Shown in pieces: positions 8,598 through 58,078 of a stretch of 64,000 nt of DNA. A model generated the notes under the pieces. That model did no database searches, was not told the origin of the DNA, and was given only the letters and a program-made list of their open reading frames with translations. This DNA is from Candidatus Pacearchaeota archaeon (lineage in GTDB: Archaea > Nanobdellota > Nanobdellia > Pacearchaeales > GW2011-AR1), in assembly GCA_018303995.1 (NCBI GenBank), contig JAGVXB010000002.1, forward strand, positions 5,916-69,915. Reading direction: 5' to 3'. A program made the translations under genes and the position numbers. Position 1 is the stretch's first letter, and every line of letters starts with the position of its first letter.

Positions 8598-8927
8598 GTG
8601 ATGTCTGAAGAGTTACCTACAAAAAAATATAGTATTGCTTTTAAGTTGCGTAGCAGAGTAAATCGCGTACAACAATTAGAAATGATTGGTAGTTATCTAA
8701 GATCTGGGGCTAATTTAATTTCATCTAATAAAAATGATAATGGTCTTAGTGCTACAAGTGAAGAAAGATATGAGCTTGTCGGAGGAGCAGTAATCACTAT
8801 CTGCCGTGAATATTGTAAAGGAGAAAATAAATTTTATTCAGTAAGAGGGGAATTTGTTCAGGGCGATGCTTTGGCAAGAAAAGGACTTGAGGCTATTGCT
8901 GGAGAATTAGGATTGGTTAGGGCTTGA
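8598..8927 (+). CDS. hypothetical 109-aa protein, paralogue 1
   Basis: Shares length and the pattern Y.(L/M)VGGAV...F(Y)...ARxGLExxAxxLG with the next ORF. Confidence 0.5.
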   Translation: MMSEELPTKKYSIAFKLRSRVNRVQQLEMIGSYLRSGANLISSNKNDNGLSATSEERYELVGGAVITICREYCKGENKFYSVRGEFVQGDALARKGLEAIAGELGLVRA

Positions 8928-8990
8928 AGTTTATTAGCCAAGAAGCATTTGTATGATCTATATTGTAATTATATTTAAATAAGGAATTAA

Positions 8991-9320
8991 TTGAAACTGA
9001 TTATGGGTGCTGGAGGAGTTGGAGATGGAGGAACATGGACTTGTAAGAGGGTTGTTGAATTAAAAGGTGGTTTAGACTTGATTGATCCAATAATAAATTA
9101 TTTACTTAGTAATTGTATAGTTCTTTCAGAAGAGAGAATTATTGGTACAAAATCATCTAATAGATATATGGTTCAAGGGGGAGCCGTTTTACGTATGGAC
9201 TATGATGGAGGTGCTTATAGTTTTTATGGAGAACATTTTATTGATGATGAAAGAGCAAGAAATGGACTTGAAAAATTTGCAAAAGATTTGGGATTTGAAA
9301 CTAGAGAAGTTGGTAGTTAA
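8991..9320 (+). CDS. hypothetical 109-aa protein, paralogue 2
   Basis: Tandem paralogue of 8598-8927 (YMVQGGAV..., ARNGLEKFAKDLGF). Confidence 0.5.
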   Translation: MKLIMGAGGVGDGGTWTCKRVVELKGGLDLIDPIINYLLSNCIVLSEERIIGTKSSNRYMVQGGAVLRMDYDGGAYSFYGEHFIDDERARNGLEKFAKDLGFETREVGS

Positions 9321-43070: not shown

Positions 43071-43433
43071 TTATTTAACAAACTCTACATTATCTAAATC
43101 TTTGAATTCTTTATCTCCTGTGAGGAACTTGATTCCTAATCTTTTAGCCATAATATATCCTATGCAATCAGGCACAGAGACGTTTCTGTCTTTCCATTCA
43201 AGCCTAAATTTTATGGCCTCTTCAATCCATTCAGGGTTGACCGAAACAATGTGCTTAGAGTATCTTTTAATATAATTATCTGCTTCAGGATTTTTATCTC
43301 TAAACCAAGCATAACATAATTCTGAAAAAGTAAAATTGTTTATTATTATTTCACTATCTAGATAAGGCTCATAATTTAAATTTCCTTTAGTAATTTCAAT
43401 AATTGCATATGCATCAAAATAATATTTAGTCAT
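43071..43433 (-). CDS. vapC: PIN-domain toxin
   Basis: N-terminal YFDAYAIIE and C-terminal TGDKEF acidic residues. Overlaps the upstream antitoxin gene by 8 nt. Confidence 0.75.
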   Translation of the reverse strand: MTKYYFDAYAIIEITKGNLNYEPYLDSEIIINNFTFSELCYAWFRDKNPEADNYIKRYSKHIVSVNPEWIEEAIKFRLEWKDRNVSVPDCIGYIMAKRLGIKFLTGDKEFKDLDNVEFVK

Positions 43434-43650
43434 ATGTAAGCTCTTTATCTATTTCTTTCATTAATTTTTCAGTAGGCTTCTTTGATTTATAAGTTCCAAA
43501 AGTTTCCCTCAATGTATTGCCTCGTTTCTTTTTCATAAAAATTGTAACTTCTTCTCCTTCTTTTACATTTTCTTCTTGTAATGCTCTTATTGGCACAACT
43601 ATTCCAAACGAATTTCCCCATTTTCTTAACTTTGTGCTTAGTTCAATCAT
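43426..43650 (-). CDS. vapB: AbrB/MazE-fold antitoxin
   Basis: LRKWGNSFGIVVPIRAL signature; 74 aa. Confidence 0.7.
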   Translation of the reverse strand: MIELSTKLRKWGNSFGIVVPIRALQEENVKEGEEVTIFMKKKRGNTLRETFGTYKSKKPTEKLMKEIDKELTYD

Positions 43651-43684: not shown

Positions 43685-45423
43685 CTAAATGTTAGATTGG
43701 CCTTTTACTGCTGACGGACTTTCGCCTCCGTGCCACGTTAGTCTTGGACGCATTCTCATAGGATAAATGCGCTCTGAATTATCGTCTAGGATAATTGCAG
43801 AGCCTTTGCTTGATGGGAGCTTGTCCATTGAGCTTTTTATGCTTTCTAATAGATAAGTTTGCATTATTTGATTTAGGGCTTCTATATCTGGTTTGGAAGT
43901 AACTCGGTGCGAGATTATAATATCTGATTGAGTCATTACGTCATTGTGTATTTGTCCTGGTTGTTGAGTTGCTAAGACTAGAGAAATTCCTGGTTGACGT
44001 CCTTCTCTTAAAATTTGGACTAGTGCATCTGTTGCTGGGGTTTTTTCGTTTTTTTTCAAAAATTCGTGGGCTTCGTCAATAAAGAGCCAGACTAAAGGAG
44101 TTTCTCTTGTTGGATTGTAAGACATGTAATCTATTCCATGTTGAATTGATTGAATTTCTTCTTGTTTTCTTGCGTTTATTCTCTGAGTGAATATCTTTCT
44201 GCTAACTAGGCCTATGACTAGGCCTCTAACGTTAAATGAACCAATTGAGCTGTAAACTGATAAGTCTATAATTGTAGTTTTGCCTGCATTTATTAAATCC
44301 GTTATTTCTATTCCTTCTGTTGTTGTTGCAAAAATTCCCCAGCTTTCTGCTGCTTGGAATAAAGAGTTAGCTATATTTTTTGTTTCTTGACTTATATTAT
44401 GTGTTTTATTTATTTGATTTATTATATCTTGTATTGTAAAGCTGTCTTTTTCTTTTTTTAATTCGCTTATTGTGTTTGTTATTAGAACTCCTTCTTGGGA
44501 CGTCATTAATACGTTAAAGGTAATTATCCAGTCTTCGGATTCTAATTCTGAAGCTTTTAATGCAAAGGCTTCGTCTACTGGAATTCCTTTATCGCGATAC
44601 TCTTGCATTTTTCCTATAGGGGCGAATACTTTAATTGGGGAGCTTTTTGGTTCTAATTTCCATTCATCTAATAGGGATTTTTCTTTTTCGTTTTTGAATT
44701 TCATTGTCCAGAAGATACCCATTGTATCAAATATTATAGGGGCTATGTTTCTTGATGTTTCTGGCGGTAAGTTAGATATTTCTTCTGTTATGACGCCAAG
44801 CGTGTACGACTTTCCAGAATTATGCGAAATTATTCCATTAGCTATAAAAGAATGATTTTTAGGAACTGATAAGTCATATACTTCTTTAATATTTTCTATT
44901 TCTTTAATCTCTTTAATAAATCTCCAACTTTTAGATTCTTTCCAGTTCTCCATAATAAAGATAATTGTTTATTGCCTGTTGCGATTAATAATGGATGTTC
45001 TTTTGTCAGAATTAGTTCTTTATTATTTTCTGATATTATTTTAATTAATTCTTCATCCTTTATATTATATCTTATTAATTCTGCTCTTTCCCATTCAAAT
45101 GTTTGGTTCTCTAAATTAAATGATAATACTTTGTCAAGCAATGGATTGAAGTCTTTTATTCTCTTGTAACCTTTGTCTGTAAATACTTGCGTGTTTCCTT
45201 CTAGGCATCCTCTTTTTCCTGCTACTAGAATTACATGCGACCTTGCGACATCAAGGAAAATATTATTTGACATTGAGGTGTAATTCCCCATTGTGACGTA
45301 GCCTTTACCTATATGTATTAAGCCTGACTGCCCGAATTTCTTTTTGTCTGAAGCATCTCTGCCAAGAATTATATCATATGCCATATAATTAAACGATTTT
45401 ATGTCTATAAATATGTTCTCCAA
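43685..45423 (-). pseudogene. HerA/FtsK-like (DUF87-type) P-loop ATPase carrying a mini-intein, with the reading frame broken inside the intein
   Basis: The Walker A motif is split as VAGKRG | intein | SGKSYT. Walker B is LVWLFIDEAHEF and ATQQPGQI follows. The two track ORFs (44896-45423 and 43685-44953) are in different frames. A 1-nt shift near 44905-44925 would join them. Confidence 0.75.
44819..45207 (-). mobile_element. mini-intein (about 130 aa) in the ATPase P-loop
   Basis: Block A CLEGNTQVFT, block B LILTKEHPLL, blocks F/G VYDLSVPKNHSFIANGIISHN followed by the +1 Ser. No homing-endonuclease-sized insert is present. Confidence 0.75.
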
Positions 45424-45757: not shown

Positions 45758-46369
45758 GTGATTTTTATGAATAAATATACACTTCCTAAATTGCCTTATG
45801 CTTTCGATGCGTTAGAGCCTTATATGGATGCTAAGACTGTTGAAATACACTATACAAAACATCATCAAGGATATTGCGATAAACTGAATTTGGCTCTTGA
45901 AAAACATCCTGCTCTTTTTGATAAGAAAGTCGAGGATTTACTTATCGGTTTGGATTCTGTGCCTTTAGATATTAAGACTGCTGTTCGTAATTTTGGAGGA
46001 GGGTTTGTTAATCATAATTTATTTTGGGAATGCATGAGTTCTAAGAAGAGTGAATGTTCTGGAAAGATACTTACTGCGATAAAAAATGATTTTGGAAGTT
46101 TTGAGGAGTTCCGCAAACAGTTTACTGCTTCTGCTACGACTTTATTTGGTTCTGGATATACTTGGCTTGTTTTATCTAATGGAAAGTTAGAAATAATGAA
46201 TACTAAGGACCAGGATTCTCCTCTATCTGTTGGGAAGAAGCCAGTTTTGGTTATTGATGTTTGGGAACATAGCTATTATTTGAAATATCAGAATAAGCGC
46301 GCAGATTTTATTGATGCTTGGTGGGATTTGGTTAATTGGGCGCATGTTGAGAAGAAATATTTGGATTGA
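45758..46369 (+). CDS. sod: Fe/Mn superoxide dismutase
   Basis: LPYAFDALEPY, KHHQGY and DVWEHSYYLKYQNKRADF. The likely start is ATG 45770. Confidence 0.92.
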   Translation: MIFMNKYTLPKLPYAFDALEPYMDAKTVEIHYTKHHQGYCDKLNLALEKHPALFDKKVEDLLIGLDSVPLDIKTAVRNFGGGFVNHNLFWECMSSKKSECSGKILTAIKNDFGSFEEFRKQFTASATTLFGSGYTWLVLSNGKLEIMNTKDQDSPLSVGKKPVLVIDVWEHSYYLKYQNKRADFIDAWWDLVNWAHVEKKYLD

Positions 46370-46421: not shown

Positions 46422-46616
46422 TTATCTTTTTACTATTTTAAGTTCTTTTTCTATTGCTTCTGGTGTAAGACCTATCCAATCTATTTTTCTTTCTTTTGCT
46501 ATATCTAGCATATCCCAGAGCGATATTCCTGCAATTTCTCCTGCTCTTCCTAGACTCATCCCTCCCTTTTTATATATCTCTAAGGCGTACTCAACTTGTT
46601 TTTTTGAAGGTTTCAT
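46422..46616 (-). CDS. UPF0175-family small protein (antitoxin-like)
   Basis: GMSLGRAGEIAGISLWDMLDIAKERKI resembles the UPF0175 signature. No partner toxin gene was seen. Confidence 0.5.
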   Translation of the reverse strand: MKPSKKQVEYALEIYKKGGMSLGRAGEIAGISLWDMLDIAKERKIDWIGLTPEAIEKELKIVKR

Positions 46617-46733: not shown

Positions 46734-46874
46734 ATGAAAGAAAAGATAACTATATCTGTAGATTCTGAGACACTGGAAAGTATAGATAAGCACATTGAGT
46801 CTGGAGCTTATAGAAATCGAAGTCATGCGTTTGAACATTCTGTTAAGAAATTAATTGGAGGTAAAAATGGGTAA
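46734..46874 (+). CDS. ribbon-helix-helix (CopG-like) protein, 46 aa, absent from the ORF track
   Basis: Hand translation gives MKEKITISVDSETLESIDKHIESGAYRNRSHAFEHSVKKLIGGKNG. Its stop overlaps the kinase ATG at 46867. Confidence 0.6.
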   Translation: MKEKITISVDSETLESIDKHIESGAYRNRSHAFEHSVKKLIGGKNG

Positions 46875-48492
46875 AGAAGATTATTCTGGAGTGCTTAGAA
46901 CAAGTAGGTATGAGGTTGACAGAGTCTTAGGCCAGGGGACATGGGGTACAGTTTATAGGGCTAAAGATAAAGTTAGCGGAGATTTCGTTGCCTTGAAAGT
47001 TCTTACGCCCACGGAGTTAGCACAGAGACAGATGGTAGAAAGAGGACAAACTCCTCAAAGTGTTATTTTGAAAGAAGGGGGAAGACATTCCTGTGCTCGT
47101 ATTGTACATAGAACTCTTGATGTTGATGGAAATGGAACTTATTTCTTAGTAATGCCTGTCATGAAAAAATTTTTAGATGATGTATTGGGTGATGAAAGGC
47201 TGGCTGAAGCAAGAACTCGATTAAAGCATGGCTTAAGTATAGAACAAATTAATGACTATACTAGAGACTTATTTGATGGACTCCGAGAAATGCACGAGAT
47301 TCGCGGAGACGTTCACGCGGACCTTAAGCCTGCGAATCTTGCAATTGATAAGGGAAGACTTTACCTAAATGATTTGGGCACATCTACCTGTGCTTCATTG
47401 CAAACTAGTTCAACTAACTCTAAAAGGGGAGAAAGAGGATTTGAGTTTACTCGTGCTCCTGAATGCTTTTTAGGAAAAGATCCTTCAAGATATTCTGATG
47501 TATGGGGGGCTGCTGCTTTGGTTTACAGAATGATGAGTAAGGATGGAAGTTACCCTTTACAAAATGAATTTGGAAATGTTTCTGACAAAACTGCTTATTT
47601 GGAGCAGATTGGCTCTGATAGGTTAAGAGAATTGTTAAGAGATAAGATAAAGAGGAATATTTCAAAAGAACATCGTAGAATAGGAAAAATACTTGAACAA
47701 TGTTTAGACCCTGATCCTAATAAAAGGCCTGGTAGTTCTGAACTAGTCAGTTTAATGGATAGAGCTACTGAAAAGAATAGATTCTGGAAGGATGCAGGAA
47801 GATTTACTAAAAGATTCGGGGTTGCTGTAGGAGCTATTGCTGCCTTAGGAGCTGTTGGATATACAGTAGCTACGGCTCCAAAGCCTACACCCTCAGAACC
47901 TCCTAAGGTTTCTGGTTTGCTTTATCTTGAAGACAATTCCGGTAAGACCTTTGATATTGAAGAGCCTTTTGAATTGCCAGAAACTTTTGATAGAGTTGGA
48001 TTGACAACTGATAAAATTTCCAAGAGGGTTACTAATTTGCCGAGTATTGCTTATTTAGTGGACTGCAAGGCTAAGGCTATGTTAGCTGGAGGAGCATGGG
48101 GAGCAGAAAGAATAACTCCTCATGAAAAAGAGCTTTTTGATAAGCATGCTTCTGATGAAGAAAAGCAAAATATTACAGAGGGCAGATTTAAGCCAAATGC
48201 ACTTCCTGAAATGTATCTTGTTCCTGCTGTAGCTTTAGAAGCTACAATGAATTCTATTCGTGACGCTCGTGGAAGAGTTGATTTAGAGGATTTACTTGTT
48301 TTTAGTAGAGTTAGTCAATCTAAGAGAAATGAAATTAATCTGATTAAATGCTATAGTGGTTCTGGAAACTTCAGAGATTATCAAAAGGCACTTCCTGAAG
48401 ATGAAGTAAATTTTATCAAATCATGGCTGGCTTATATTCATGATGGTCTTGCCCGCAAGGATTTATCTAGCGATGTTAAGGATAATCGATAA
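46855..48492 (+). CDS. Hanks-type Ser/Thr protein kinase with TM helix and C-terminal extracytoplasmic domain
   Basis: GQGTWGTVY...VALKVL, HADLKPANL, NDLG and TRAPE, then the TM segment FGVAVGAIAALGAVGYTVA. The likely start is ATG 46867. Confidence 0.85.
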   Translation: MEVKMGKEDYSGVLRTSRYEVDRVLGQGTWGTVYRAKDKVSGDFVALKVLTPTELAQRQMVERGQTPQSVILKEGGRHSCARIVHRTLDVDGNGTYFLVMPVMKKFLDDVLGDERLAEARTRLKHGLSIEQINDYTRDLFDGLREMHEIRGDVHADLKPANLAIDKGRLYLNDLGTSTCASLQTSSTNSKRGERGFEFTRAPECFLGKDPSRYSDVWGAAALVYRMMSKDGSYPLQNEFGNVSDKTAYLEQIGSDRLRELLRDKIKRNISKEHRRIGKILEQCLDPDPNKRPGSSELVSLMDRATEKNRFWKDAGRFTKRFGVAVGAIAALGAVGYTVATAPKPTPSEPPKVSGLLYLEDNSGKTFDIEEPFELPETFDRVGLTTDKISKRVTNLPSIAYLVDCKAKAMLAGGAWGAERITPHEKELFDKHASDEEKQNITEGRFKPNALPEMYLVPAVALEATMNSIRDARGRVDLEDLLVFSRVSQSKRNEINLIKCYSGSGNFRDYQKALPEDEVNFIKSWLAYIHDGLARKDLSSDVKDNR

Positions 48493-49386
48493 AACTGGAC
48501 TTGAACTTATTTGTATTAACCTAAAGAGCTCATTAATATGGCAGAGAACCATTGCTTTTTTTCCATTAGCTTTTTCTATTAATCTAGGTATTTTCCCGAA
48601 GTGGTATTCTTTTTTTAAGATATTTATTTTATGAATACTTGTTATATCTTTATTTGTTATGGTATTATCTAGAAATGCATAATATTTTTCCAGATCTTCA
48701 AAAATATCTAAAATCTCTTTATCTGCTTTGAACTTTTTTGTTTTTGCGTATTCATAAAGGTAATAGTATTTGTGTTCTATATGCATTAGGAAAGTTAGGA
48801 GCTCCCAGCTTAGGACAACTTCTTTTTCCGACTCATTAAGCAAAACTCTTCTACAGAACAATACGAGTTTGTCTAGATGTTCTCGCATGGCTTGTACCTC
48901 TGAAGAACTCACATATTTTCCAAATTTGACATCTTGAACAACAGAAACGTGAGTTTCTTTAATTAAAGACATTACTCTTTTTAGTAATTCAGGATACTTT
49001 TTATTAGATGGTTCTGAGACGTTTTCTATAATACATTCTTTTTCGGAACGACTGGTAATCTCAAAACCCAATAGCATTTTATCTACTATTTGCTGTGCTT
49101 CTCGTATAATTTCTTTGTTTATATTTTCAATTTTTATTATTTGAAAACCTTCTCTGTAAGCATGAGTGAGAATGTTTTGAATGTCTTTTTTGTTTTCTTC
49201 AGTTATTTTTAGAATTATTTCTTTTTTGGTTTTTTCTTTTGGCGTGGTGATTTTTAAGATACTGTTACTTTCCTCGACCTCGACTTGCGAGCCTTTCTCT
49301 AAATTATTCTGTTTAGCCCATTTGGCCGGTATACTCACCATTAAGGTAGCTGCTCCTTGTTTCACTAATTTTCTTATAACCATCAA
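48463..49386 (-). CDS. AbrB-domain / PhoU-like regulator
   Basis: N-terminal LVKQGAATLMVSIPAKWAK (AbrB/SpoVT), then a helical domain of about 200 aa. This architecture is typical of archaeal PhoU-like proteins. Confidence 0.5.
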   Translation of the reverse strand: MMVIRKLVKQGAATLMVSIPAKWAKQNNLEKGSQVEVEESNSILKITTPKEKTKKEIILKITEENKKDIQNILTHAYREGFQIIKIENINKEIIREAQQIVDKMLLGFEITSRSEKECIIENVSEPSNKKYPELLKRVMSLIKETHVSVVQDVKFGKYVSSSEVQAMREHLDKLVLFCRRVLLNESEKEVVLSWELLTFLMHIEHKYYYLYEYAKTKKFKADKEILDIFEDLEKYYAFLDNTITNKDITSIHKINILKKEYHFGKIPRLIEKANGKKAMVLCHINELFRLIQISSSPVLSIILNIAR

Positions 49387-49479: not shown

Positions 49480-50145
49480 ATGGAAACACAAAAAAAATCA
49501 ATGGGGAAGACAGTAGCACTTGCTTTAGCTGGTGCTCTTGCTTCTGGATGCGCTACACCTATCGAATTCAAGCCCGGCTTTAACGCCGTATATGCTGGAT
49601 TACATAGCAAACGCGAAGAAGGATATGCACGTGTATTTACTGGTGCTAGTGTAGGAAATGATACTTTGCGAGTTTATCATCATGGTCTTAATGAAGTGAG
49701 CGGAGAAGACACTAATACTTATTTTGGAAGAAATATATTTGGTGTTGAACCTCTGAATATTGGAATTGAAGCAATTGTAGATATGCGTGGAAACAAAGAT
49801 GGTTTATTTGATGGTCAGCCTTATTATGGGGCTAGAGATTTTAATTCTGTGAAGATGCTAGGTTCCGACTGGGGATTCTTACAAGGAACTACAAATGGGG
49901 AGAATGGAAACTTAACGATGCTTTATGGTAAAAATATGGGCTTTTTATCTGAAAGTTTGAGACCTTTGTCTGTAGAACTTTTCCACACATATGAATATGG
50001 GCAAGATGGAAAAGATAGCAATTATAGTGAAATTACAGCTGACTGGAATATATTTGGCAACTTTGGGATATTTGTTAGACAAGATATTTCCGAGTTTAGT
50101 TTGAATGATGCAAATTATGTTATTGGGGGAGTTTTGAAACTTTAA
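49480..50145 (+). CDS. lipobox-bearing beta-rich protein (operon gene 1)
   Basis: KKSMGKTVALALAGALASGC lipoprotein-type signal. The mature part is G/N/Y/F-rich with alternating beta-strand-like text. Confidence 0.55.
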   Translation: METQKKSMGKTVALALAGALASGCATPIEFKPGFNAVYAGLHSKREEGYARVFTGASVGNDTLRVYHHGLNEVSGEDTNTYFGRNIFGVEPLNIGIEAIVDMRGNKDGLFDGQPYYGARDFNSVKMLGSDWGFLQGTTNGENGNLTMLYGKNMGFLSESLRPLSVELFHTYEYGQDGKDSNYSEITADWNIFGNFGIFVRQDISEFSLNDANYVIGGVLKL

Positions 50146-50146
50146 T

Positions 50147-50776
50147 ATGGCGTATTATACTGAAGATATTAGGTCAAGAGGAATTCAGTCAGGAGTAGCG
50201 CATGCACCATTTGATGAAGCTCTTGAAATATTGAGAAGTCAAGGAGAGAGCATAATTTCAATAGCTCAGAATGCTCAGTTGAGAATTCAGGAAGGAACAG
50301 AAGCATATATCTCACAAAATGGTAATTATGTTCGAGAAGGAGTTATTTATATTCCAAAGGCAAAACCTAAATTAGTTAGATTTTCTCCAATACTAAGTTT
50401 TGTAAAAGATGCAACATATGCACATGGGCAAGGAGAAGAATTTTGCCCTAGTCAAGACTTAATAGATATTGCTTTAGGTGATTCAGTAGAATTTCCTCAA
50501 AAAGATATCCTTATTCCAACAAATAGATTTAATTCAGAAGGGTTGCTAGCATTTCTTTTTGGTGGGGTAGACAAAGCACAAGCATATGGAAATTTTCTAG
50601 ATTCTACAGGAATCAAGGAAATGTTTGTTTGTGTAGTTGATAATAATTATGTTAATAAGCAAGATAAACCATTTGCAAGACCGTTGTGGTTCGGCGGGCT
50701 TATCGACGGGTCTTACCTTGATGTCAGCATCCACTACTTGCATAACGACGAGAGAGTTCGTGGGGTGCGGGAATAA
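50147..50776 (+). CDS. hypothetical protein (operon gene 2)
   Basis: Starts 2 nt after gene 1. The C-terminal LWFGGLIDG...RVRGVRE motif is shared with genes 3 and 5. Confidence 0.5.
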   Translation: MAYYTEDIRSRGIQSGVAHAPFDEALEILRSQGESIISIAQNAQLRIQEGTEAYISQNGNYVREGVIYIPKAKPKLVRFSPILSFVKDATYAHGQGEEFCPSQDLIDIALGDSVEFPQKDILIPTNRFNSEGLLAFLFGGVDKAQAYGNFLDSTGIKEMFVCVVDNNYVNKQDKPFARPLWFGGLIDGSYLDVSIHYLHNDERVRGVRE

Positions 50777-50777
50777 T

Positions 50778-51461
50778 ATGGTATCAAAAACAGATTTCAA
50801 ACATAATCCTGCTGAACGGACAATAGAAACAGCTGGAAGGGTTTATACTGATTTTGAGTTGACAGGCGATTTTCGCTTATTAAGACAAGCAAATTATGGA
50901 GAAGGCTTCAGAATGGCAACATTTGGAGAAGTTCTTGATTTAGTTCATCAATCATATCTTAATCAAGGAAATACAGGAGCAGATAATGTTGTTAGAGCGA
51001 CAAGACAATTCTGGTTATCTGGAAACACTGTTGCATATGGAGGAAGAGATATCATAACTGTCCAAAATTTCCCAGAAATTAAAGAGGGAAGAATTATAAT
51101 GGATTTTGAAGAATTAGAATCTTTACTTAATGAAGGAGAAGATTTAGTGCCTGGGGTAAGGATAAGCCGAGACGGAAATGTGGGCTTTGTTTTAAGAAAC
51201 AAAGTTAGAGGGGGTTGGCATGATGAAACACAAATAAGAGGGTCTCTTTATCCTATAGTTCTTGCACTTAGTAAAAACGGTTCAGATAATATGGCAGACA
51301 TTTCTAGAGTTAAGCAGAAAAGCGCTTATTTTGCGCTTCCAACAGTGGGAAAAATAACAGTCTTGGATTTGGATGAGGACGATGATAGGTTGGGCTTCGG
51401 TGGCTACTACTGGGGCGAGTTCGACAACGGCAGGCATTCATTCGGAGTAAAGGAGAAATAA
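50778..51461 (+). CDS. hypothetical protein (operon gene 3)
   Basis: The track ORF begins at 50637, but ATG 50778 lies 2 nt after the gene 2 stop. The C-terminus reads RLGFGGYYWGEF...HSFGVKEK. Confidence 0.5.
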   Translation: MVSKTDFKHNPAERTIETAGRVYTDFELTGDFRLLRQANYGEGFRMATFGEVLDLVHQSYLNQGNTGADNVVRATRQFWLSGNTVAYGGRDIITVQNFPEIKEGRIIMDFEELESLLNEGEDLVPGVRISRDGNVGFVLRNKVRGGWHDETQIRGSLYPIVLALSKNGSDNMADISRVKQKSAYFALPTVGKITVLDLDEDDDRLGFGGYYWGEFDNGRHSFGVKEK

Positions 51462-51464
51462 AAA

Positions 51465-52256
51465 ATGGCTGACAAATCTAGAAATACTGGAAAGGGAATT
51501 GCTTTAGCCGGTCTTGGTGCTTTAGCTTCATGTGTTTCGCCTGAGCGAGGGTTGGAAAAACTTGCTCAACAACCTTCTCAACCTCCTGTTGCTGCAAATG
51601 GAAGAAAACCTAACGAAGTGGATTATAGTACTAAAGTTGCTGATAAGTATCTTGCAAGAATAGGTGTTATTTTTGCAGATGAGCCTGTAATTCAGAATAG
51701 TTTGACTTATTCTAATAATAATTTGCCCGGTTTGAGTCTTAATTATTGGGAAAATAGGCTACTTGGAAATGGAGAATTAACTGAAACAGATTTAACTCTT
51801 CGTTATGGTTTGTCTAGGGAAAATTTTGATTTTTCTGTTAAAGCCGATTACGTTTTTCTTGATGCATTTACTTCTTTTAGAGATGCTCTAGAGATAGGTG
51901 CTAGTGTGTCTACAAGAAATTTGCCTGTGAGACTTGGTGGAGAGATTGATGCAATATTTAGCCCTGATAACAGTAGGGATGTAGGATTTGAATATATTTT
52001 ATCGGCTAGAAAAGATGTTAATTTAATTGGTGGTTTAAGTGCAAATGCTTGGGGAGATGTGCATTTTAATAGTCATTATTTTACTCCAGACAGCACTTTT
52101 TCAGTAACAAACATTGGAGCTGGATTAAACTGGGACATATTTAGAAATGGTTTAGTTAATTTAGGTGTTAGTGGTCAACAACAATATACTTTAGGAGATA
52201 ATTTTGAAGATCAATCTCTTGTTGGAGTGAGTGTTGGAGGGAGTGTTAAGTTTTAA
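51465..52256 (+). CDS. lipobox-bearing beta-rich protein (operon gene 4)
   Basis: GKGIALAGLGALASC lipobox. Strand-like alternating pattern, ending in ...VGVSVGGSVKF with a C-terminal aromatic residue. Confidence 0.55.
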   Translation: MADKSRNTGKGIALAGLGALASCVSPERGLEKLAQQPSQPPVAANGRKPNEVDYSTKVADKYLARIGVIFADEPVIQNSLTYSNNNLPGLSLNYWENRLLGNGELTETDLTLRYGLSRENFDFSVKADYVFLDAFTSFRDALEIGASVSTRNLPVRLGGEIDAIFSPDNSRDVGFEYILSARKDVNLIGGLSANAWGDVHFNSHYFTPDSTFSVTNIGAGLNWDIFRNGLVNLGVSGQQQYTLGDNFEDQSLVGVSVGGSVKF

Positions 52257-52257
52257 G

Positions 52258-52923
52258 ATGGATGATACAAAAGCTTTTTTTGGGTTTAGAGTAAAGGGAA
52301 AAGACTGCACAACTTATAGACACTCTAATGCGGGGTTTAACGGTTTAGGGATGAGGATGCTTGAGTATGTTTCTCAAACCCCTGTTTCTCTTATGAGGTT
52401 AGTAGCTGTTCGCACCGAATTAGTTGATTCTCTGGATATGGCGCCTCGAGAGATTGTAGAACATTATGAGAAAATTAAGAAGAAACTTGCCATACAACTT
52501 ATAGGAAATAACCATTCTTGGGGGAATGTTGTTAATTCTTTGAGTGGAGGTTTATATTCTAATGATTTGTTTGTTTTTAATGAGCACTTAATGCAAATGC
52601 TCGATAGTAAGAAATTACCTAGAGTTTCTTGGGATAATGCTTACATTGTAGATGTGGATAAAGAAAGATTGGAGTTTTATCAGAAATTTGTTGCGCCTTA
52701 CAACTTTGGTAGATATTCTAAGATAGTTGAAGAGTTAGATTCAGCATCTTCAAAACATAATGGTGTCATTTTAGTCAGAGAATTTTCTTTTGATGAGGTT
52801 AAAGCTGCTAAAGATGACTTTGGTGGTTTAATTGCTCGAGTAAATGAGTCATCTGCACAATTATCTCAAGCCGATTCATTTAACAGAAAATATTTTGAGT
52901 GGTTGTCTGAGGCGCCTGGATAA
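52258..52923 (+). CDS. hypothetical protein (operon gene 5)
   Basis: ATG 52258 lies 2 nt after the gene 4 stop. A DDFGGLIARV motif lies near the C-terminus. Confidence 0.5.
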   Translation: MDDTKAFFGFRVKGKDCTTYRHSNAGFNGLGMRMLEYVSQTPVSLMRLVAVRTELVDSLDMAPREIVEHYEKIKKKLAIQLIGNNHSWGNVVNSLSGGLYSNDLFVFNEHLMQMLDSKKLPRVSWDNAYIVDVDKERLEFYQKFVAPYNFGRYSKIVEELDSASSKHNGVILVREFSFDEVKAAKDDFGGLIARVNESSAQLSQADSFNRKYFEWLSEAPG

Positions 52924-52953
52924 AAATAAATTCCTAAAATGGAGATATAAATA

Positions 52954-53658
52954 ATGACAAAGAGATTTCATGGAAAAATAGGGGAAGAATATGCACTTTT
53001 TGAGAGGGCATATACTCATTTTAATGAATTTCAGGAAAGAATAGCAAAGCAAGTTAGTAAACATTGTAAGGGGAAAAAAGTTTATCCTATTCTTGAATTA
53101 GGATGCGGACCAGGTCCAACTAGTAAAAAATTACTTATGTTAAATAAAAAGGCTATTTTGACTGCAGTTGACAACGAACCTTTAATGATTGCCCAGGCAG
53201 AAGATTATCTACAACAATATGAAGATAGAGTATACCTAGTACAAAGGGATATTTTGGAATATCTTGATAATATGCCTGGTTCAGTTTTTGATGCTGTAGC
53301 TAGTGGATGGACACTTCATAATTTCGATTCAAGTTATAGAGAAAAAGTACTTCGTGGAATTTATAGGGTTCTCAAACCAAATGGGATATTTGTTAATGGA
53401 GATAAATACGCACAAGATGATGCTGATAAACATCATGCTGATTTTAATTGGTCTATTGAGCAATTCGTTAAAAAGATGGCAGAAAAAGGACATCATCAAC
53501 TATGCTATGACTGGATTATCCACATGGGGTTTGATGAAGATCCAAAAAGGTTAATGAAAGAAAGAGAGTCTTTGAGTGAACTTGAAAGAATTGGTTTTAT
53601 TAGTCCTGAAGTTATCTGGAGAAAGAGAATGGAGGCAATTGTGTCTGCTAGGAAATAG
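52954..53658 (+). CDS. class I SAM-dependent methyltransferase (operon gene 6)
   Basis: ILELGCGPGPTS motif I, then VASGWTLHNF and LKPNGIFVNGD. Confidence 0.75.
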   Translation: MTKRFHGKIGEEYALFERAYTHFNEFQERIAKQVSKHCKGKKVYPILELGCGPGPTSKKLLMLNKKAILTAVDNEPLMIAQAEDYLQQYEDRVYLVQRDILEYLDNMPGSVFDAVASGWTLHNFDSSYREKVLRGIYRVLKPNGIFVNGDKYAQDDADKHHADFNWSIEQFVKKMAEKGHHQLCYDWIIHMGFDEDPKRLMKERESLSELERIGFISPEVIWRKRMEAIVSARK

Positions 53659-53737
53659 TTTTACCTTTTAATAAAATCCCTATTTTTCAGTTTATAAGGG
53701 CATAATGTTTAAAAGCCACTACTTTTCTTAATTTAAC

Positions 53738-54679
53738 ATGGATCACTTAAAGTTACACGTTTTGCCTAGAGTAGAAATGACTCGGGAAGAATTTTTAGTG
53801 AATACTCTGCGTAATTCTATTGCTTTAGATGGTGTTGTAAAGGGCGGTCCGTTTTTTGATCCGGTTACAAAGCACATGAACATTGATCATCATGATGGGG
53901 TTGTTCGCGAGGCCACAATGAGTACTTGCAAGCAGGTTTTTTATGCGATAAAGGCTGGTTTATTTGAGAGTTTTAGAGACGAAAGGGGAAGGCCATTTGC
54001 TAATGCATATTTAAATGATCCTGATCAAGATACTAGTTTATCTTTTTTTGAGTTACAAAATTATAAAATGCTTGAAGGAACAAATGGTTCTCCAGCTTTG
54101 AATCGTTTGATTGAATTAACAGACCGTTTAGATGTTACAGCAGGCGCCTTTCCCATGAGTTTATCTGATCAACTTTTACGCCAATATGCTTGGATATTCC
54201 AAAACTATTCTGATCTTAGAAAGAGTGGAAAACTTGCAGTTGCTAATGCAGGCGAGATTAGAGCTTGTTTAGAGGCTACTTCTTCTAGAATAATGGATTA
54301 TCTGTTGGGTCGCGGAAGTGAGTTAGAATTAGATACAAGATACGAAATATTACATGAAGATCCTAGGTTTAAGGTTATTAATGAAATAGGTGGAAACGAT
54401 GCTCGCTACTTTTTGTTTTCAAAAGGATTGAATGCTTTCATCAGTTTAGTGGCTACTCGTCCGGATGGCAATAGAGTATATTCTGTTGGTAGAAGAAGCA
54501 TGCTTATCCCATTTCCAGTGAAAGAATTGTATGATGTTTTCAATGCTGCAGAAGGCCTAACTAAAGACGGTTGGGGTAGTTCCGACATAGTTGGAGGTTC
54601 TTCAAGACTGCATGGAAGTAAGCTTACTCCTTCTGAACTATTTAGATTAACTAAAGATTACTTAGATAAATCTAAATAA
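53738..54679 (+). CDS. hypothetical protein, possibly a divergent DHH/DHHA1-like phosphoesterase (operon gene 7)
   Basis: NIDHHDG (DHH-like), NDPDQDT and a late GGSSRLHG (GGGH-like). The assignment is weak. Confidence 0.35.
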   Translation: MDHLKLHVLPRVEMTREEFLVNTLRNSIALDGVVKGGPFFDPVTKHMNIDHHDGVVREATMSTCKQVFYAIKAGLFESFRDERGRPFANAYLNDPDQDTSLSFFELQNYKMLEGTNGSPALNRLIELTDRLDVTAGAFPMSLSDQLLRQYAWIFQNYSDLRKSGKLAVANAGEIRACLEATSSRIMDYLLGRGSELELDTRYEILHEDPRFKVINEIGGNDARYFLFSKGLNAFISLVATRPDGNRVYSVGRRSMLIPFPVKELYDVFNAAEGLTKDGWGSSDIVGGSSRLHGSKLTPSELFRLTKDYLDKSK

Positions 54680-54694
54680 ACTAAATATAAATTT

Positions 54695-55615
54695 ATGAGT
54701 TCTAATATTAAGTCTAGGAAAGAAGATTTTGGTGTAATCACATATGACTCTTCTAAGGATACTTTTGTTCTGGTTCCAAATGATAGTTTTGATTCAAATG
54801 AAAATTATACTCTTTCGGGTCCGTTAACTGCTCATTGGACAACTACTCTTAGATGCAATGCGAGATGTAGTTATTGTTATCTTCTTCCCGTATTGAAGAA
54901 AGTTAATGAAAAAGAAGATATCCTTTCTAAAGGAGATGCGAGAGAATTTATCCGTAGTTTTGCACAATCTGGAGGATTTAGACTTTATCTTACTGGTGGG
55001 GAGCCGACACTTCATCCGTTTATTGATGAAATAATGGATTATGCAAATGAAGAAAAGATAAAGGTTGTAGTTAACACTAATGGTATTATTGTTCCGGAAA
55101 GAGTTTACGAATCGGTAAGAAGGAATGGGGCAAGTTTGAGTTTTAGTCTTGATTCTCATTCTGGGAAAGAACATGACGAAGTTAGAAAACAAAAATCTTT
55201 TGATTCAATAGTTGAAATGCTTGGAAGATGTAGGAATGAAGGGGTTGATACAAGAGTAATATCTGTTGCAAGTACGGGTGACGTGCATTACTGGGAAGAA
55301 TTTGGGCGTTTTTTAAGCGAAGCAGGAGTTGGAAGATGGTTTATTCAAGGAGATAATTCTAAGATAGTTGAAGGGTTAGATTCAGATTTAGAGAGCAGAC
55401 TCAGGGTTTCTTTTCCATCATTACGTGTTAGAGTTATTCCTGCGATTTATGATTCTTTTTTATATGTTCTTCCAGATGGAACTGCTTGCTCTAATGCTTG
55501 GGGAGATAGAGTTGTTTATGGGAAAGTTCCTCAAGACTCTGTAAAAGATATTTGGAAGAAAAATAGTAAGAATGGGCTTAAAGATCATTTAGGAATAATT
55601 CGAATAGAAAACTAG
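54695..55615 (+). CDS. radical SAM enzyme (operon gene 8)
   Basis: CNARCSYCY (CxxxCxxC), LTGGEPTLHP and VVNTNG. There is no obvious SPASM Cys-rich tail. Confidence 0.8.
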   Translation: MSSNIKSRKEDFGVITYDSSKDTFVLVPNDSFDSNENYTLSGPLTAHWTTTLRCNARCSYCYLLPVLKKVNEKEDILSKGDAREFIRSFAQSGGFRLYLTGGEPTLHPFIDEIMDYANEEKIKVVVNTNGIIVPERVYESVRRNGASLSFSLDSHSGKEHDEVRKQKSFDSIVEMLGRCRNEGVDTRVISVASTGDVHYWEEFGRFLSEAGVGRWFIQGDNSKIVEGLDSDLESRLRVSFPSLRVRVIPAIYDSFLYVLPDGTACSNAWGDRVVYGKVPQDSVKDIWKKNSKNGLKDHLGIIRIEN

Positions 55616-55624
55616 AGGATGATT

Positions 55625-56794
55625 TTATCTTTTAATAAAATCTATTTCTTCTGGCCCTAACTTGAGTTGTTCTTGAATGATCTGGTCGTTTTGAATTATC
55701 TTTTTTATTAGGCTGAAGTCACGCATTGCTCTCTTTGTCGAGCAATGAACGTATTTTGCGTATTTTTGGCTGATTGTTTTTTTCTTTGACATTATAGTGT
55801 TGTTTAACCATATTTTTAATATTCTCTGAGGTCTTTCGTATTTTGTGAAACTGGCTTTTGGTTTGTCTTTGGCGTAACTTATGCCTGCGGACTGGAATAT
55901 ATTTTGATAAACTAGGAAACGCCAGAATTGCTGTCTGTAAATGCGTCCTCTAAATATGTCTGCCTTTGCTAATGCTAAATAGGCTCGTGCTAATGCTTTG
56001 CCTTTATATTCTCTTGGGATATTTTCTTCTATCCAGAGGAGGATTTCATCTAGAGACATTTTCGTATTATCAAATAAATCTAAACTGTCCGAGCGTTCTT
56101 GAAATAGTTTTTTTAATATATTGAAAATGCTGTCTTTTTTACTTCTTTCTTCGAGGAAGTCTACATTTGTCTGATCTGTTAGAACATATGTTTGTAAGTC
56201 GTTTAAAGCGGCTCGAATATCTCCTTGAGATTTTATGGCTATTTGTTTAAGGTAGTGTATATTTTCTTTATGTCCTTCTTTTTTTACTATACTCTCTAAG
56301 ACTTTTACTATATCATCTATGAATAGAGGTTTCATTTCTATCAATTTGCATTTTGGTCTCAAGTCTGAGAATTTAGAATCCCATATGTCGTTTCCAGTCA
56401 TTATTATTGGATGTGCTGTTTTGTCTATTATTCTGATTAGTTCTGCTACTCCGCCAATGTCTGTGCCTGTTACACCGTCAACTTCGTCCATTAGTAGGAT
56501 TTTTCCTATTTTGAAAAGACTTTGTTGTAAGGATGCTGGTTTGAGAATTTCTTCTAATTTTAGTCTATTTCTTAAGTCTGATGAGTTTAGTTCAAAGATA
56601 TCTAAGTTGTGTTCTTTTGCTATTGCGTGAACTAAAGTTGTTTTACCGGTTCCTGATGGACCGTGTAAAATTATTCCTTTCTTTTTAGGAAATTCTTTTA
56701 GAAATTTTTGTAATTCTAAGACTGCTGATTCTTGACCTATTAAGTCTCTTAAGACTGTTGGCCTGTATTTCTCGGCGAAGCTTGAACTTATCAT
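55625..56794 (-). CDS. rfcL: replication factor C large subunit
   Basis: FAEKYRPTVLRDLIGQ, GPSGTGKTT and LLMDEVDG. Confidence 0.85.
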   Translation of the reverse strand: MISSSFAEKYRPTVLRDLIGQESAVLELQKFLKEFPKKKGIILHGPSGTGKTTLVHAIAKEHNLDIFELNSSDLRNRLKLEEILKPASLQQSLFKIGKILLMDEVDGVTGTDIGGVAELIRIIDKTAHPIIMTGNDIWDSKFSDLRPKCKLIEMKPLFIDDIVKVLESIVKKEGHKENIHYLKQIAIKSQGDIRAALNDLQTYVLTDQTNVDFLEERSKKDSIFNILKKLFQERSDSLDLFDNTKMSLDEILLWIEENIPREYKGKALARAYLALAKADIFRGRIYRQQFWRFLVYQNIFQSAGISYAKDKPKASFTKYERPQRILKIWLNNTIMSKKKTISQKYAKYVHCSTKRAMRDFSLIKKIIQNDQIIQEQLKLGPEEIDFIKR

Positions 56795-56845: not shown

Positions 56846-57199
56846 TTACTTTTTTCTATAACCAAACTTCTTATTGTATGTTGGATGGTCTATGATATCA
56901 AGCACGAATGCAATTATTTCTATTTCTGAATTGCCCGCTGTTACACTATATAGCATTCTCCAAAAATCAGGCAGTTCTACTCTGTGTAAATTATTTATTC
57001 GATATTTTTCTTTATATTCTTCTGGGATCAAATCCTTTGCGATTGGCTCCCCATATTGAAAATTATTCTTTATTAGCTCTATTTTGTAATTAACTGCTTT
57101 CAAGATCATTCTCTCTTTTTTAGAGAATGGAGATCTGCTGTTTAGATGATCATAAACTTCTTTGGCTTCTAAAGATAAAACAACATTGACTTCTTTCAT
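56846..57199 (-). CDS. RelE/ParE-superfamily-like toxin (tentative)
   Basis: HRVELPDFWRMLYSV...IEIIAFVLDIIDHPTYNKKF resembles RelE-fold C-terminal strands. There is a 4-nt overlap with the upstream small gene. Confidence 0.4.
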   Translation of the reverse strand: MKEVNVVLSLEAKEVYDHLNSRSPFSKKERMILKAVNYKIELIKNNFQYGEPIAKDLIPEEYKEKYRINNLHRVELPDFWRMLYSVTAGNSEIEIIAFVLDIIDHPTYNKKFGYRKK

Positions 57200-57474
57200 A
57201 TAGAGTATCCTTCAGATATCGCTTTTCTTAAAATTGGATTTTCATTATGTATCCAACTTATTCCGCGAACGCCAAAGGCAATTTTATTGCTTTTTTCTAG
57301 ATATTGCAGAATTATAATGAGAGTATTATGATTTACTTGGCGAGGCAGTTTTCTTTTAAGCTCGGCTACTGTAATTACACTATCGTTATTTTCTCTTATA
57401 GCCTCCTCTACCATAATTACAGTATTTAGAGTTGGCCAGTGCGTTACTTTCATTCCTTCTAACTTTTGTGACAT
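57196..57474 (-). CDS. putative cognate antitoxin / small DNA-binding protein
   Basis: 92 aa, translationally coupled to 56846-57199. Confidence 0.35.
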   Translation of the reverse strand: MSQKLEGMKVTHWPTLNTVIMVEEAIRENNDSVITVAELKRKLPRQVNHNTLIIILQYLEKSNKIAFGVRGISWIHNENPILRKAISEGYSI

Positions 57475-57587: not shown

Positions 57588-57824
57588 ATGCAAGTAGCAG
57601 ATGAACAAACTAGTATTCGAGTAAGTAAACGCATACTTCATTTACTTCAGAGTATGAAAACCTATTCTAAAGAGAGTTATGATGAGGTTATTTGGAATTT
57701 AATAGAACCTCATCTTGAACTTAATGAAAAAACTAAGAGGTCTATAGAAGAATCTAGAAAAGAAATTGAAAAAGGGAATTATTACACTCTTGAAGAAATT
57801 GAAGAAAAATACGGGTTGAAGTGA
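57588..57824 (+). CDS. putative antitoxin
   Basis: 78 aa, with a 4-nt overlap with the downstream RelE-like gene. Confidence 0.5.
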   Translation: MQVADEQTSIRVSKRILHLLQSMKTYSKESYDEVIWNLIEPHLELNEKTKRSIEESRKEIEKGNYYTLEEIEEKYGLK

Positions 57825-58078
57825 TGAAAATAATTTTTTCTGATAAGGCAGATAAACAGTTATCTAGATTAAATCCTTTTATAGCCGATAAAATTATTAA
57901 ATCTATAAGGAAATTCCAAAATGGCGAACGTGTTGATATCCAAAAATTGCATGGAAGATTAAATGAATTTCGTATTAGGGTTGGCGATTATAGAGTTATT
58001 TTGGAGAAACTTCCAAACGGAGACTTTTCAGTTTTAGAGATAGGTCAAAGAGAAAATATTTACTTTTTTGAATTCTAA
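57821..58078 (+). CDS. relE: RelE/ParE-family toxin
   Basis: KADKQLSRL...FRIRVGDYRVILE...VLEIGQRENIY is the classic RelE/ParE pattern. Confidence 0.8.
   Translation: MMKIIFSDKADKQLSRLNPFIADKIIKSIRKFQNGERVDIQKLHGRLNEFRIRVGDYRVILEKLPNGDFSVLEIGQRENIYFFEF

Follow-up and report, generated by a model that had tools for sequence, protein, structure and literature searches.

Probable cassette mosaic in a tightly packed eight-gene block of a Candidatus Pacearchaeota archaeon

Whether tight packing of genes in a small archaeal genome betrays a common function is the question raised by a block of eight genes in Candidatus Pacearchaeota archaeon (assembly GCA_018303995.1, contig JAGVXB010000002.1), analysed here within a stretch of 64,000 nucleotides, hereafter the window (contig positions 5,916 to 69,915, forward strand; coordinates below count from its first letter). 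DPANN archaea and bacteria of the Candidate Phyla Radiation (CPR) depend on host cells, and the molecules acting at the contact sites are largely unknown. An earlier note, made from the sequence alone, had described the block at 49480-55615 as an operon of eight tightly packed, co-directional genes. The open reading frame (ORF) listing and the computed spacing bear this layout out: all eight genes lie on the + strand, separated by 1, 1, 3, 1, 30, 79 and 15 nt. They are called g1 to g8 in their order, and the labels L001 to L071 designate contigs or loci of relatives or metagenomes. For g3 and g5, the ATG codons at 50778 and 52258 were taken as starts, the upstream TTG and GTG of the respective mechanical ORFs being discarded.

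49480-50145, + strand: g1, lipobox protein, Gly/Asn-rich and beta-rich, C-terminus GGVLKL
50147-50776, + strand: g2, cytoplasmic protein of a large uncharacterised family
50778-51461, + strand: g3, cytoplasmic protein of a small family
51465-52256, + strand: g4, lipobox protein, predicted outer-membrane-type beta-barrel, C-terminus GGSVKF
52258-52923, + strand: g5, cytoplasmic protein with one detected relative
52954-53658, + strand: g6, class I S-adenosylmethionine (SAM)-dependent methyltransferase
53738-54679, + strand: g7, Pfam-less family, DHH/DHHA1-like two-domain fold, putative metal-dependent phosphoesterase
54695-55615, + strand: g8, radical SAM enzyme of a small orphan family

The answer given by the analysis is that this "operon" is a mosaic: the observation of the earlier note is confirmed, its interpretation is supported in part, and the functions proposed for the genes are all inferred. 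The explanation that we favour, with moderate confidence, is that the block is a strain-variable genomic island of a groundwater nanoarchaeote, made of separable cassettes, and not one eight-gene pathway. This reading is based on conserved flanks, on the unrelated cargo that they enclose, on a cassette swap between the strains of L001 and L008, and on a scar of the right-hand flanking gene inside the array. The two flanks are the following.

45758-46369, + strand: Fe/Mn superoxide dismutase (SOD) gene, Pfam Sod_Fe_N/C, conserved left flank of the island
55625-56794, - strand: replication factor C large subunit (RFC-large) gene, AAA and RFC lid domains, conserved right flank

The window is identical to contig L071 from the Rifle aquifer, and its closest relatives are annotated as Nanoarchaeota. 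In L001, L006 and L008 the flanking genes are conserved, identity to the window amounting to 94% for RFC-small, 82% for RFC-large, and 77% for both SOD and a TYW2-type methyltransferase. Between SOD and RFC-large, these four syntenic genomes hold four different contents. L001 has a UPF0175/DUF3368 toxin-antitoxin (TA) pair, then g7 alone, and L008 has the same type of pair, then adjacent g1 and g4 without g2 or g3 between them. L006 has genes for a ribbon-helix-helix (RHH) protein, a kinase and an AbrB-PhoU regulator, then X344, g4 and a homologue of g5, X344 being a secreted beta-rich protein of 344 residues that is not detectably related to g1. Conserved flanks and unrelated cargo in close relatives, the mark of a flexible island, are thus both found, the window holding the longest version of the island seen. 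All eight genes occur together only in the window's own population. The earlier note had proposed conservation of gene order as a check on an eight-gene unit, and here its reading fails, since relatives carry g7, g1+g4, X344+g4+g5, or g1+g4+g7+g8, the last of these combinations being found in L053, where AbrB precedes a compact g1 g4 g7 g8 set next to a different flank gene, TruD.

The most direct observation comes from L001 and L008, whose flanks share 99.7% DNA identity over 9.2 kb upstream and 8.0 kb downstream, around inserts of 1.0 kb and 1.6 kb, respectively, that are unrelated to each other. This difference is a cassette swap between near-identical strains. Its right-hand breakpoint is the 3' end of RFC-large, and the last cassette gene abuts the stop codon of RFC-large in every variant. 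Two short repeats lie within the array.

53655-53688, no strand: ghost of the RFC-large 3' end, in the 79-nt spacer between g6 and g7
52715-52744 (in g5) and 55356-55385 (in g8), + strand: 30-nt patch, 29 of 30 positions identical

The 20-mer TTTTAYCTTTTAATAAAATC occurs in the window only in the ghost and at the true RFC-large 3' end (55623-55642), with a chance expectation of 0.02. The local alignment covers about 30 nt, with a minus-strand reading of ..DFIKR-stop, and the ghost also matches the cassette/RFC-large junction of L006. Its position in the spacer indicates that g6 once abutted RFC-large and that g7 and g8 were joined on later. The patch shared by g5 and g8, for which 0.00 occurrences are expected by chance, encodes SKIVE(E/G)LDS, which deviates from the homologues in both genes, and suggests a short gene-conversion or template-switch event. 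Ghost and patch are the only non-random repeats found.

Composition does not set the block apart. The G+C content of the eight genes is 0.34-0.385, versus 0.335 +/- 0.035 for the other genes of the window (z 0.2-1.4), and G+C at third codon positions (GC3) does not differ; a foreign origin as judged by composition is thereby ruled out, and the raised G+C that had been perceived by eye in the first half of the block does not hold up. Reading directly from the sequence, Shine-Dalgarno-like GGAG motifs precede g2 to g6, no such motif is seen upstream of g1 or g7, and each of the latter two has TATA-like boxes 20-45 nt upstream. This pattern, together with the scar in the g6-g7 spacer, suggests two transcription units, g1-g6 and g7-g8. 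A search of Rfam detected no RNA element between 45500 and 58500.

Scans of the eight proteins against Pfam, NCBIfam, PADLOC and PHROGs returned just generic methyltransferase and radical SAM domains, g1 to g5 and g7 having no Pfam, NCBIfam or PADLOC match, in agreement with the statement of the earlier note that the combination maps to no described pathway or defence system. The individual proteins were considered through their homologues, their predicted structures and their contexts.

With regard to the cell surface, g1 and g4 carry the sole convincing lipoboxes detected by a scan of the 64-kb window. Their signals (...ALAGALASG-C24 and ...LAGLGALAS-C23, respectively) both show a basic N-region, a hydrophobic core and a [LVI/A][AS][GAS]-Cys sequence within about 25 residues, and the Cys of the lipobox is kept without exception in eight g4 homologues and in three of three g1 homologues. 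The lipoprotein signals noticed earlier are thus upheld, and both proteins would be lipid-modified at this Cys, as predicted from the lipobox.

The g4 family is small, with six homologues found and the two examined contigs being Nanoarchaeota-type loci. An AlphaFold2 (AF2) model of g4, built on a seven-sequence alignment, displays 13 antiparallel strands of 8-14 residues; its mean predicted local distance difference test (pLDDT) score is 61.7, the means of 10-residue blocks ranging from about 55 to 83 along the barrel and lying mostly at 68-83, and a low-confidence linker of about 35 residues, rich in Pro, Gln and Ala, separates the lipobox from the barrel. When this model was compared to the PDB with Foldseek, all of the top 50 matches were outer-membrane or organellar barrels (probability 0.97-1.0, template modelling (TM) score 0.32-0.56), including OccAB4 (E 2e-4), PcoB, NanC, Omp32, the BamA barrel, OmpG, Tsx and VDAC. 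Besides, hydrophobic and polar residues alternate along the strands, with a period-2 moment z of 2.46 versus shuffled controls, g4 being the sole one of the eight proteins raised to this extent (for g1, period-2 amphipathicity is weakly raised, with z of about 1). Sub-threshold Pfam matches of the g4 family fall mostly in outer-membrane barrel families (SlipAM, the PelB_C barrel, DUF5686, IAT_beta), no curated outer-membrane protein family of Pfam passing the threshold for g4 and no PDB sequence being matched. Finally, g4 ends in ...VGVSVGGSVKF, in which F263 is invariant and hydrophobic residues occupy positions -3, -7 and -9. Taken together, these data support, with moderate confidence, an outer-membrane-barrel-like fold for g4.

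As for g1, homologues are found in L008 (70% identity) and L053 (41%), the endings being GGVLKL, GGVLKF and GGVIEF, and neither Pfam nor PDB sequences give a match. Both g1 and g4 end in GGx(V/L)K(F/L), and a [VLF]-[KRHE]-[FL] ending is common to g1, g4, X344 (...EVRL) and a 420-aa protein of L024 (...EFKF), a group whose ends would fit a C-terminal beta-signal. We read this common ending, on sequence grounds, as a shared C-terminal signal. The barrel-like terminus noticed earlier in g4 is accordingly supported by the AF2 model, Foldseek, the alternation and the invariant Phe. The likeness of g1 and g4 is confined to the signal peptide and this C-terminal tail, homology between the two proteins not being detectable. 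Homology of g1 or g4 with the larger secreted proteins of L005, L024, L031, L037 and L006 was not detectable either. Bacterial contamination as the source of g4 was ruled out, several independent assemblies having g4 homologues at this same archaeal locus. Transmembrane beta-barrels count as a hallmark of the outer membranes of bacteria and organelles. Literature searches turned up no paper that describes barrels of this type for Nanoarchaeota or Woesearchaeota, and the sole archaeal mention concerns a porin-like family that may have a distant relative in Altiarchaeales (PMC12228718).

The second protein of particular interest is g7. Its homologues number 299, of which the best 120, from archaea and bacteria, are 52-72% identical, and no Pfam domain was found in g7 or in these best 120. 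As far as these comparisons go, g7 is the founder of a conserved family without Pfam match. A genome scan located the family in Nanoarchaeota, Woesearchaeota, several CPR phyla, Planctomycetota and some metagenome-assembled genomes (MAGs) with other labels. This distribution is patchy across domains, including MAGs labelled Gammaproteobacteria or Methanosarcinales, with identities of 39-71% (L010-L052), and could reflect either horizontal transfer or a very strong constraint on the sequence. Over 34 sequences, D31, D50-H51-H52, N93-D94-x-D96-Q97-D98, D132 and G287-S288-x-R290 are invariant, and the GGSSR motif is conserved.

The AF2 model of g7 reaches a pLDDT of 93.3. When it was compared to the PDB with Foldseek, DHH-family proteins took nine of the first ten ranks, with weak scores (E 5e-3 to 2e-2, TM 0.19-0.35), NrN coming first, along with RecJ-Cdc45, PPX1, family II pyrophosphatase and PggH among the top neighbours. 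BFVD, a library of viral structures, yields DHH hydrolases and proteins named as phage "exopolyphosphatase" (E 9e-5 to 1e-3, with named proteins down to 8e-4). No sequence-profile match links g7 to PF01368 or PF02272, and a PDB search with the profile of the family retrieves no DHH protein. The DHH-like character that the earlier note had suspected from two motifs is nonetheless supported by the structural matches in both databases and by the invariance, or near invariance, of NIDHHD and GGSSR; on the basis of the model, we call g7 DHH/DHHA1-like, not a member of the family.

The genomic contexts of g7 are diverse. In the 39 loci compared, each neighbour family is shared by four loci at most, and in CPR bacteria the gene stands alone among housekeeping genes, for example in a mur/fts cluster. 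Homologues were found on just two IMG/VR contigs. One (L065, IMGVR_UViG_3300029893_000001, 392 kb, classed as viral) encodes a homologue of 50% identity and may stem from a huge phage, or else from a small cellular genome that was wrongly classed. In the other (L066, IMGVR_UViG_3300033066_002300, 96 kb, classed as viral), the homologue is broken by a 429-nt insert at 8613-9041, whose length is a multiple of three, which contains many stop codons and which has no Rfam match, intron families included. In addition, a distant relative (39%) on a Nanoarchaeota contig (L047, 355-1989) lies divergently beside a gene for a radical SAM protein of 201 residues without relationship to g8.

The radical SAM enzyme g8 matches PF04055 (E 7e-20), has the core motif CNARCSYC and belongs to a family of 18 homologues; a metagenome pattern scan with g8 found no locus. 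Its SPASM match (E 0.046) stays below the cutoff, and its C-terminal 90 residues, which include a degenerate stretch resembling the SPASM/twitch hairpin, have a single Cys, as in the closest homologues. The earlier note had described a radical SAM enzyme without SPASM tail; the enzyme class and the lack of an auxiliary-cluster tail are correct, a degenerate, single-Cys SPASM-like C-terminus being kept. Among proteins of solved structure, BlsE comes closest (E 2e-10), with viperin-like enzymes and MoaA next. The viperin-like hint given earlier is not sustained, the score against the viperin equivalog NF038283 being 61 bits for a curated cutoff of 180 and covering positions 3-183 of 281 of the profile only. 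One of the homologues, P0128, is identical to g8 for about 155 residues and then close to P0129, and could be a recombinant radical SAM allele of a related strain or an assembly chimera.

The neighbours of g8 homologues show a recurrent pattern. In four independent locus groups (L054/55, L056, L067/68 and L069/70), an overlapping or abutting HD_5-type HD gene follows g8 and a divergent TrmB gene precedes it. Only the window, in which no HD homologue was found, and L053 have g8 without the HD gene and with g7 directly upstream. This suggests, from gene neighbourhood, a radical SAM and phosphohydrolase pair in which a DHH-like enzyme would have replaced the HD enzyme.

Among the remaining genes, g2 has a large family, with 622 cluster representatives at 50% identity (E<=1e-3), in which the members bearing a name are from Nanoarchaeota or from an uncultured archaeon and for which there is no Pfam or PDB match. 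A g2 homologue occurs in an unrelated context in L062, and in L008 and L053 no g2 separates g1 from g4. For g3, five metagenomic relatives of 33-39% identity were found, that of L060 being a stand-alone gene in archaeal context, and there is no PDB match. The one relative detected for g5 (38% identity) directly follows the g4 homologue in L006; g5 has no Pfam, PDB or defence-library match and two sub-threshold matches in PHROGs (E 0.03 and 0.05), to families of unknown function. The FGG motifs which the earlier note had seen in g2, g3 and g5 are present, the paralogy that it also named is not: BLASTP finds nothing, a hidden Markov model of the g2 family misses g3 and g5, and HHalign gives g3 versus g2 a probability of 0.4%. 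The class I SAM methyltransferase g6 was correctly recognised (PF13649, E 2e-16; Methyltransf_25/11/12/31 at E 1e-12 to 2e-16), no NCBIfam equivalog reaching its cutoff, and in L005, L024 and L031 the surroundings of g7 include unrelated class I methyltransferases.

Upstream of the block, the variable region contains further genes.

46440-46598, - strand: UPF0175 antitoxin gene remnant (tblastn with the UPF0175 protein of L001: residues 43-94 of 100, 55% identity)
46734-46868, + strand: small RHH-type gene ahead of the kinase, 91% identical to a 46-aa RHH_1 gene of L006
46855-48492, + strand: Ser/Thr protein kinase gene, Pfam Pkinase E 3e-26
48463-49386, - strand: AbrB/SpoVT-type regulator gene (AbrB-PhoU family), PF04014 E 6e-8, divergent from g1

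At the place of the remnant, a 64-aa UPF0175 gene is called in the identical contig L071, and an intact UPF0175/DUF3368 pair is found in L001 and L008. The TA surroundings reported earlier are confirmed, with modules at 43071-43650 and 57588-58078. In the kinase of the window, the strongest hydrophobic segment starts at residue 321 and is followed by a C-terminal domain of about 200 residues. A kinase is found at the same position in L005, L006 and L031, the sequences being too diverged for alignment: between the window and L006 (5927-8005), tblastn yields no alignment of the kinases, yet the adjacent RHH genes are 91% identical. The kinase, with its presumed extracellular C-terminal domain, is, to judge from this divergence, part of the hypervariable region. 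Homologues of the AbrB-type regulator lie divergently upstream of the cassettes in L005, L006, L024, L031 and L053, and the proteins of the window and L006 share 32% identity despite the kept gene type. An AbrB N-terminus is present in six of six homologues and a PhoU domain is detectable in two of the six; a Pfam scan detected none in the regulator of the window. The AbrB half of the "AbrB/PhoU-like" regulator noted earlier is therefore sustained by PF04014, the PhoU half applying to those two homologues and not to the window protein.

Further out, two overlapping ORFs (175 and 422 aa) at 43685-45423 (- strand) represent the HerA/DUF87 ATPase gene, which includes intein sequence. The gene is a single one of 1027 aa in L001 and L008, with intein-domain matches on both sides of the DUF87 match, and an intein-free one of 436 aa in L006, so that intein content differs among close relatives. 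On the other side, at 56846-57474 (- strand), genes of 117 and 92 aa without Pfam family lie between RFC-large and an RHH/ParE pair; these have no counterpart in L001, L006 and L008 and thus mark a second small variable spot beside the island.

On this basis, the favoured island reading can be put in mechanistic terms. Between the SOD/UPF0175 region and the 3' end of RFC-large, cassettes would be gained, lost and exchanged by recombination, and the version of the window may be viewed as three modules. The first, comprising the RHH gene, the membrane Ser/Thr kinase and the divergent AbrB/PhoU-type regulator, would sense and regulate. The second, g1-g6, probably one transcript, would concern the envelope: g1 and g4 would be exported, lipid-modified and held at the cell surface as amphipathic barrels, g4 hanging on a flexible tether of about 35 residues, and both may serve as pores or adhesins at the contact with the host cell, g2, g3 and g5 presumably being unrelated cytoplasmic cassettes within this module and g6 its methyltransferase. 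The third module, probably under its own promoter, would be the nucleotide-directed enzyme pair g7-g8, in which g8 may modify a nucleotide-like small molecule and the DHH/DHHA1-like g7 would stand in for the HD phosphohydrolase. Population data from Nanoarchaeota, where hypothetical cell-surface proteins show an excess of non-synonymous single-nucleotide polymorphisms (PMC6142677), fit this island reading.

Several findings nevertheless weigh against it. The eight-gene array is fixed and identical in 13 of 13 g7-carrying contigs of the Rifle population, the very tight packing is equally compatible with co-function, and the retention of AbrB, g1, g4, g7 and g8 together in a different flank in L053 argues for some functional linkage of g1, g4, g7 and g8. 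At the level of the single proteins, the DHH assignment of g7 combines weak Foldseek scores with the lack of a sequence-profile link, and the g4 model is of moderate confidence and built on seven sequences. Nanoarchaeota, moreover, are not known to have an outer membrane or a barrel-assembly machinery of the BAM/Omp85 type.

The first three of these points lend themselves to another explanation, in which the regulator, the secreted barrels and g7, with or without g8 and the methyltransferase, would constitute one system for the uptake and processing of host-derived phosphorylated compounds: the surface barrels would be the entry pore, g7, g8 and the methyltransferase would process nucleotides, oligonucleotides or polyphosphate, and control would be of the PhoU type, on the model of bacterial Pho regulons. 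In favour of this proposal is a pattern common to five DPANN loci (the window, L053, L005, L024 and L031), in which one or two genes for secreted or beta-rich proteins directly precede g7 and a divergent AbrB-type gene lies upstream, a Ser/Thr kinase often preceding the regulator and a class I methyltransferase often lying nearby. It is joined by the compact L053 set in its different flank, the PhoU domain detectable in two of six regulators, the presence of PPX1, family II pyrophosphatase and nanoRNase-type enzymes among the structural neighbours of g7, the occurrence of the g7 family in CPR and DPANN lineages with reduced genomes, and the tight packing of an array fixed in its population. 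However, near-identical strains have either g7 or g1 and g4 at the site and never both there, g7 stands alone in bacteria and some archaea, and g2, g3, g5 and g6 fall outside any recurrent set. In addition, the secreted proteins of the different loci are not detectably homologous, the regulator of the window has no detected PhoU domain, and no transporter gene is present. We regard such an uptake system as possible, though unlikely. A facultative functional link between surface proteins and g7 in DPANN, which is also part of the favoured reading, is made plausible by the shared gene neighbourhoods, the L001/L008 pair indicating that each of the two can be present at the site without the other.

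A bolder extension of the island reading, which we consider rather doubtful, would be that single-membrane Nanoarchaeota encode their own families of lipid-anchored barrels of outer-membrane type with a shared beta-signal, among them g4, in all likelihood g1, and the secreted beta-rich proteins, unrelated to these, that other DPANN have at this locus. Such a barrel, tethered to the symbiont through its lipid anchor and flexible linker, would insert into the membrane of the host as a conduit for the uptake of metabolites, and the rapid swapping of the genes would reflect adaptation to different hosts.

It could also be envisaged that the block is an antiviral defence island, with g8 as a viperin-like enzyme that makes a modified nucleotide, g7 as an NrN-like phosphodiesterase that degrades nucleotides or signals, g6 as a modification methyltransferase and the kinase as a sensor. 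In PADLOC, the pVip model indeed matches g8 (70.8 bits, E 3e-20), mad2 matches g6, and both mad6 and PD-T4-6 match the kinase; NCBIfam matches g8 to viperin_w_prok at 61 bits, and viperin-like structures are among the PDB sequence matches of g8. Furthermore, the top structural match of g7, NrN, is a SAM-AMP-binding enzyme, one g7 homologue is annotated as "abortive infection protein" by its source, and hotspot behaviour with flanking TA genes is typical of defence hotspots. Nevertheless, the PADLOC matches cover just generic domains, namely the radical SAM core (positions 3-166 of 257 of pVip), the methyltransferase and the kinase, so that they were not taken as membership in a MADS or pVip system, and the viperin equivalog cutoff of 180 bits is widely missed. 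Elsewhere, the partner of g8 is an HD hydrolase with TrmB, some of these loci having housekeeping neighbours, and g7 lies among housekeeping genes (mur/fts) in CPR bacteria. Moreover, g1 to g5 match no defence family, g7 has no PADLOC match, and its homologues are limited to the two IMG/VR contigs described above. A defence function of the block is therefore improbable in our view.

Very improbable, finally, is a novel biosynthetic pathway of all eight genes for a modified envelope lipid, glycan or peptide whose product the lipoproteins would export or present: the tight co-directional packing with Shine-Dalgarno-like motifs before internal genes, the common tailoring pair of radical SAM enzyme and methyltransferase and the stability of the array in 13 population contigs would suit it, but the set is conserved in no related genome, the ORF listing and Pfam reveal no precursor peptide, glycosyltransferase, lipid-synthesis or transporter gene, the recombination scar parts g1-g6 from g7-g8, and the families of g2, g7 and g8 are each found in other contexts.

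The favoured reading of the block as an island of separable cassettes has consequences beyond this genome. Tight packing in a streamlined genome is, in the first place, no evidence for a single pathway. A locus at which near-identical strains exchange surface proteins offers concrete candidates for determinants of host range, and a barrel fold of g4 and its neighbours, if confirmed, would be unexpected in a single-membrane archaeon. The g7 family, strongly conserved, Pfam-less and common to DPANN, CPR and Planctomycetota, represents a well-behaved target for biochemistry. The invariable pairing of the g8 family with an HD enzyme in other lineages, here apparently replaced by a DHH-like one, may point to unexplored nucleotide-type chemistry.

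Comparison with known systems reveals likenesses as well as differences. Like the DHH/DHHA1 phosphoesterases (NrnA, PggH, GdpP, RecJ/Cdc45, PPX1, family II pyrophosphatase, NrN), g7 would have a two-domain alpha/beta architecture with an invariant Asp-His-His and Asp clusters, and its GGSSR lies near the C-terminus where DHHA1 has GGGH. It differs in that this motif has no conserved His, in that the triad comes early (50-52), before the NDxDQD cluster, an order unlike the canonical motifs I-IV, and in its weak structural scores without any matching sequence profile. With SPASM/twitch enzymes (BlsE, viperin, MoaA), g8 shares the CxxxCxxC core and an LPDGxxC...YG...IW stretch at the C-terminus; its one C-terminal Cys makes an auxiliary cluster unlikely, no NCBIfam equivalog reaches its cutoff, and the family has its own N-terminal extension of about 45 residues and its HD_5-like hydrolase partner with a TrmB regulator. 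Compared to bacterial outer-membrane barrels of 12-18 strands (NanC/KdgM, OmpG, OccD/OccK, PcoB, Omp32), g4 has in common the signal peptide, about 13 predicted amphipathic strands and the terminal Phe, whereas a lipobox and a long linker precede its barrel, its host is a nanoarchaeote and its homologues are known just from a handful of metagenomic contigs.

At the level of the whole locus, the juxtaposition of an AbrB-PhoU regulator, a porin-like barrel and a putative phosphoesterase in several DPANN loci may recall the bacterial Pho regulon, in which PhoU control, a phosphate porin and phosphoesterases are combined; here, Pst transporter, PhoB/R and alkaline phosphatase are missing, g7 has no signal peptide and PhoU is not detectable in the regulator of the window. 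The locus also resembles the flexible islands and integration hotspots of bacteria and archaea. The present island departs from these in that no tRNA gene lies within it or at its borders, no long att-like direct repeats flank it, no integrase is found among the ORFs scanned against Pfam, and its cargo is not made of recognised defence systems. Its right anchor is instead the 3' end of RFC-large, of which a ghost persists inside the array. With such islands it nevertheless shares the conserved flanks, the unrelated cargo, the nearby TA genes, and a cargo in which surface proteins and accessory enzymes predominate.

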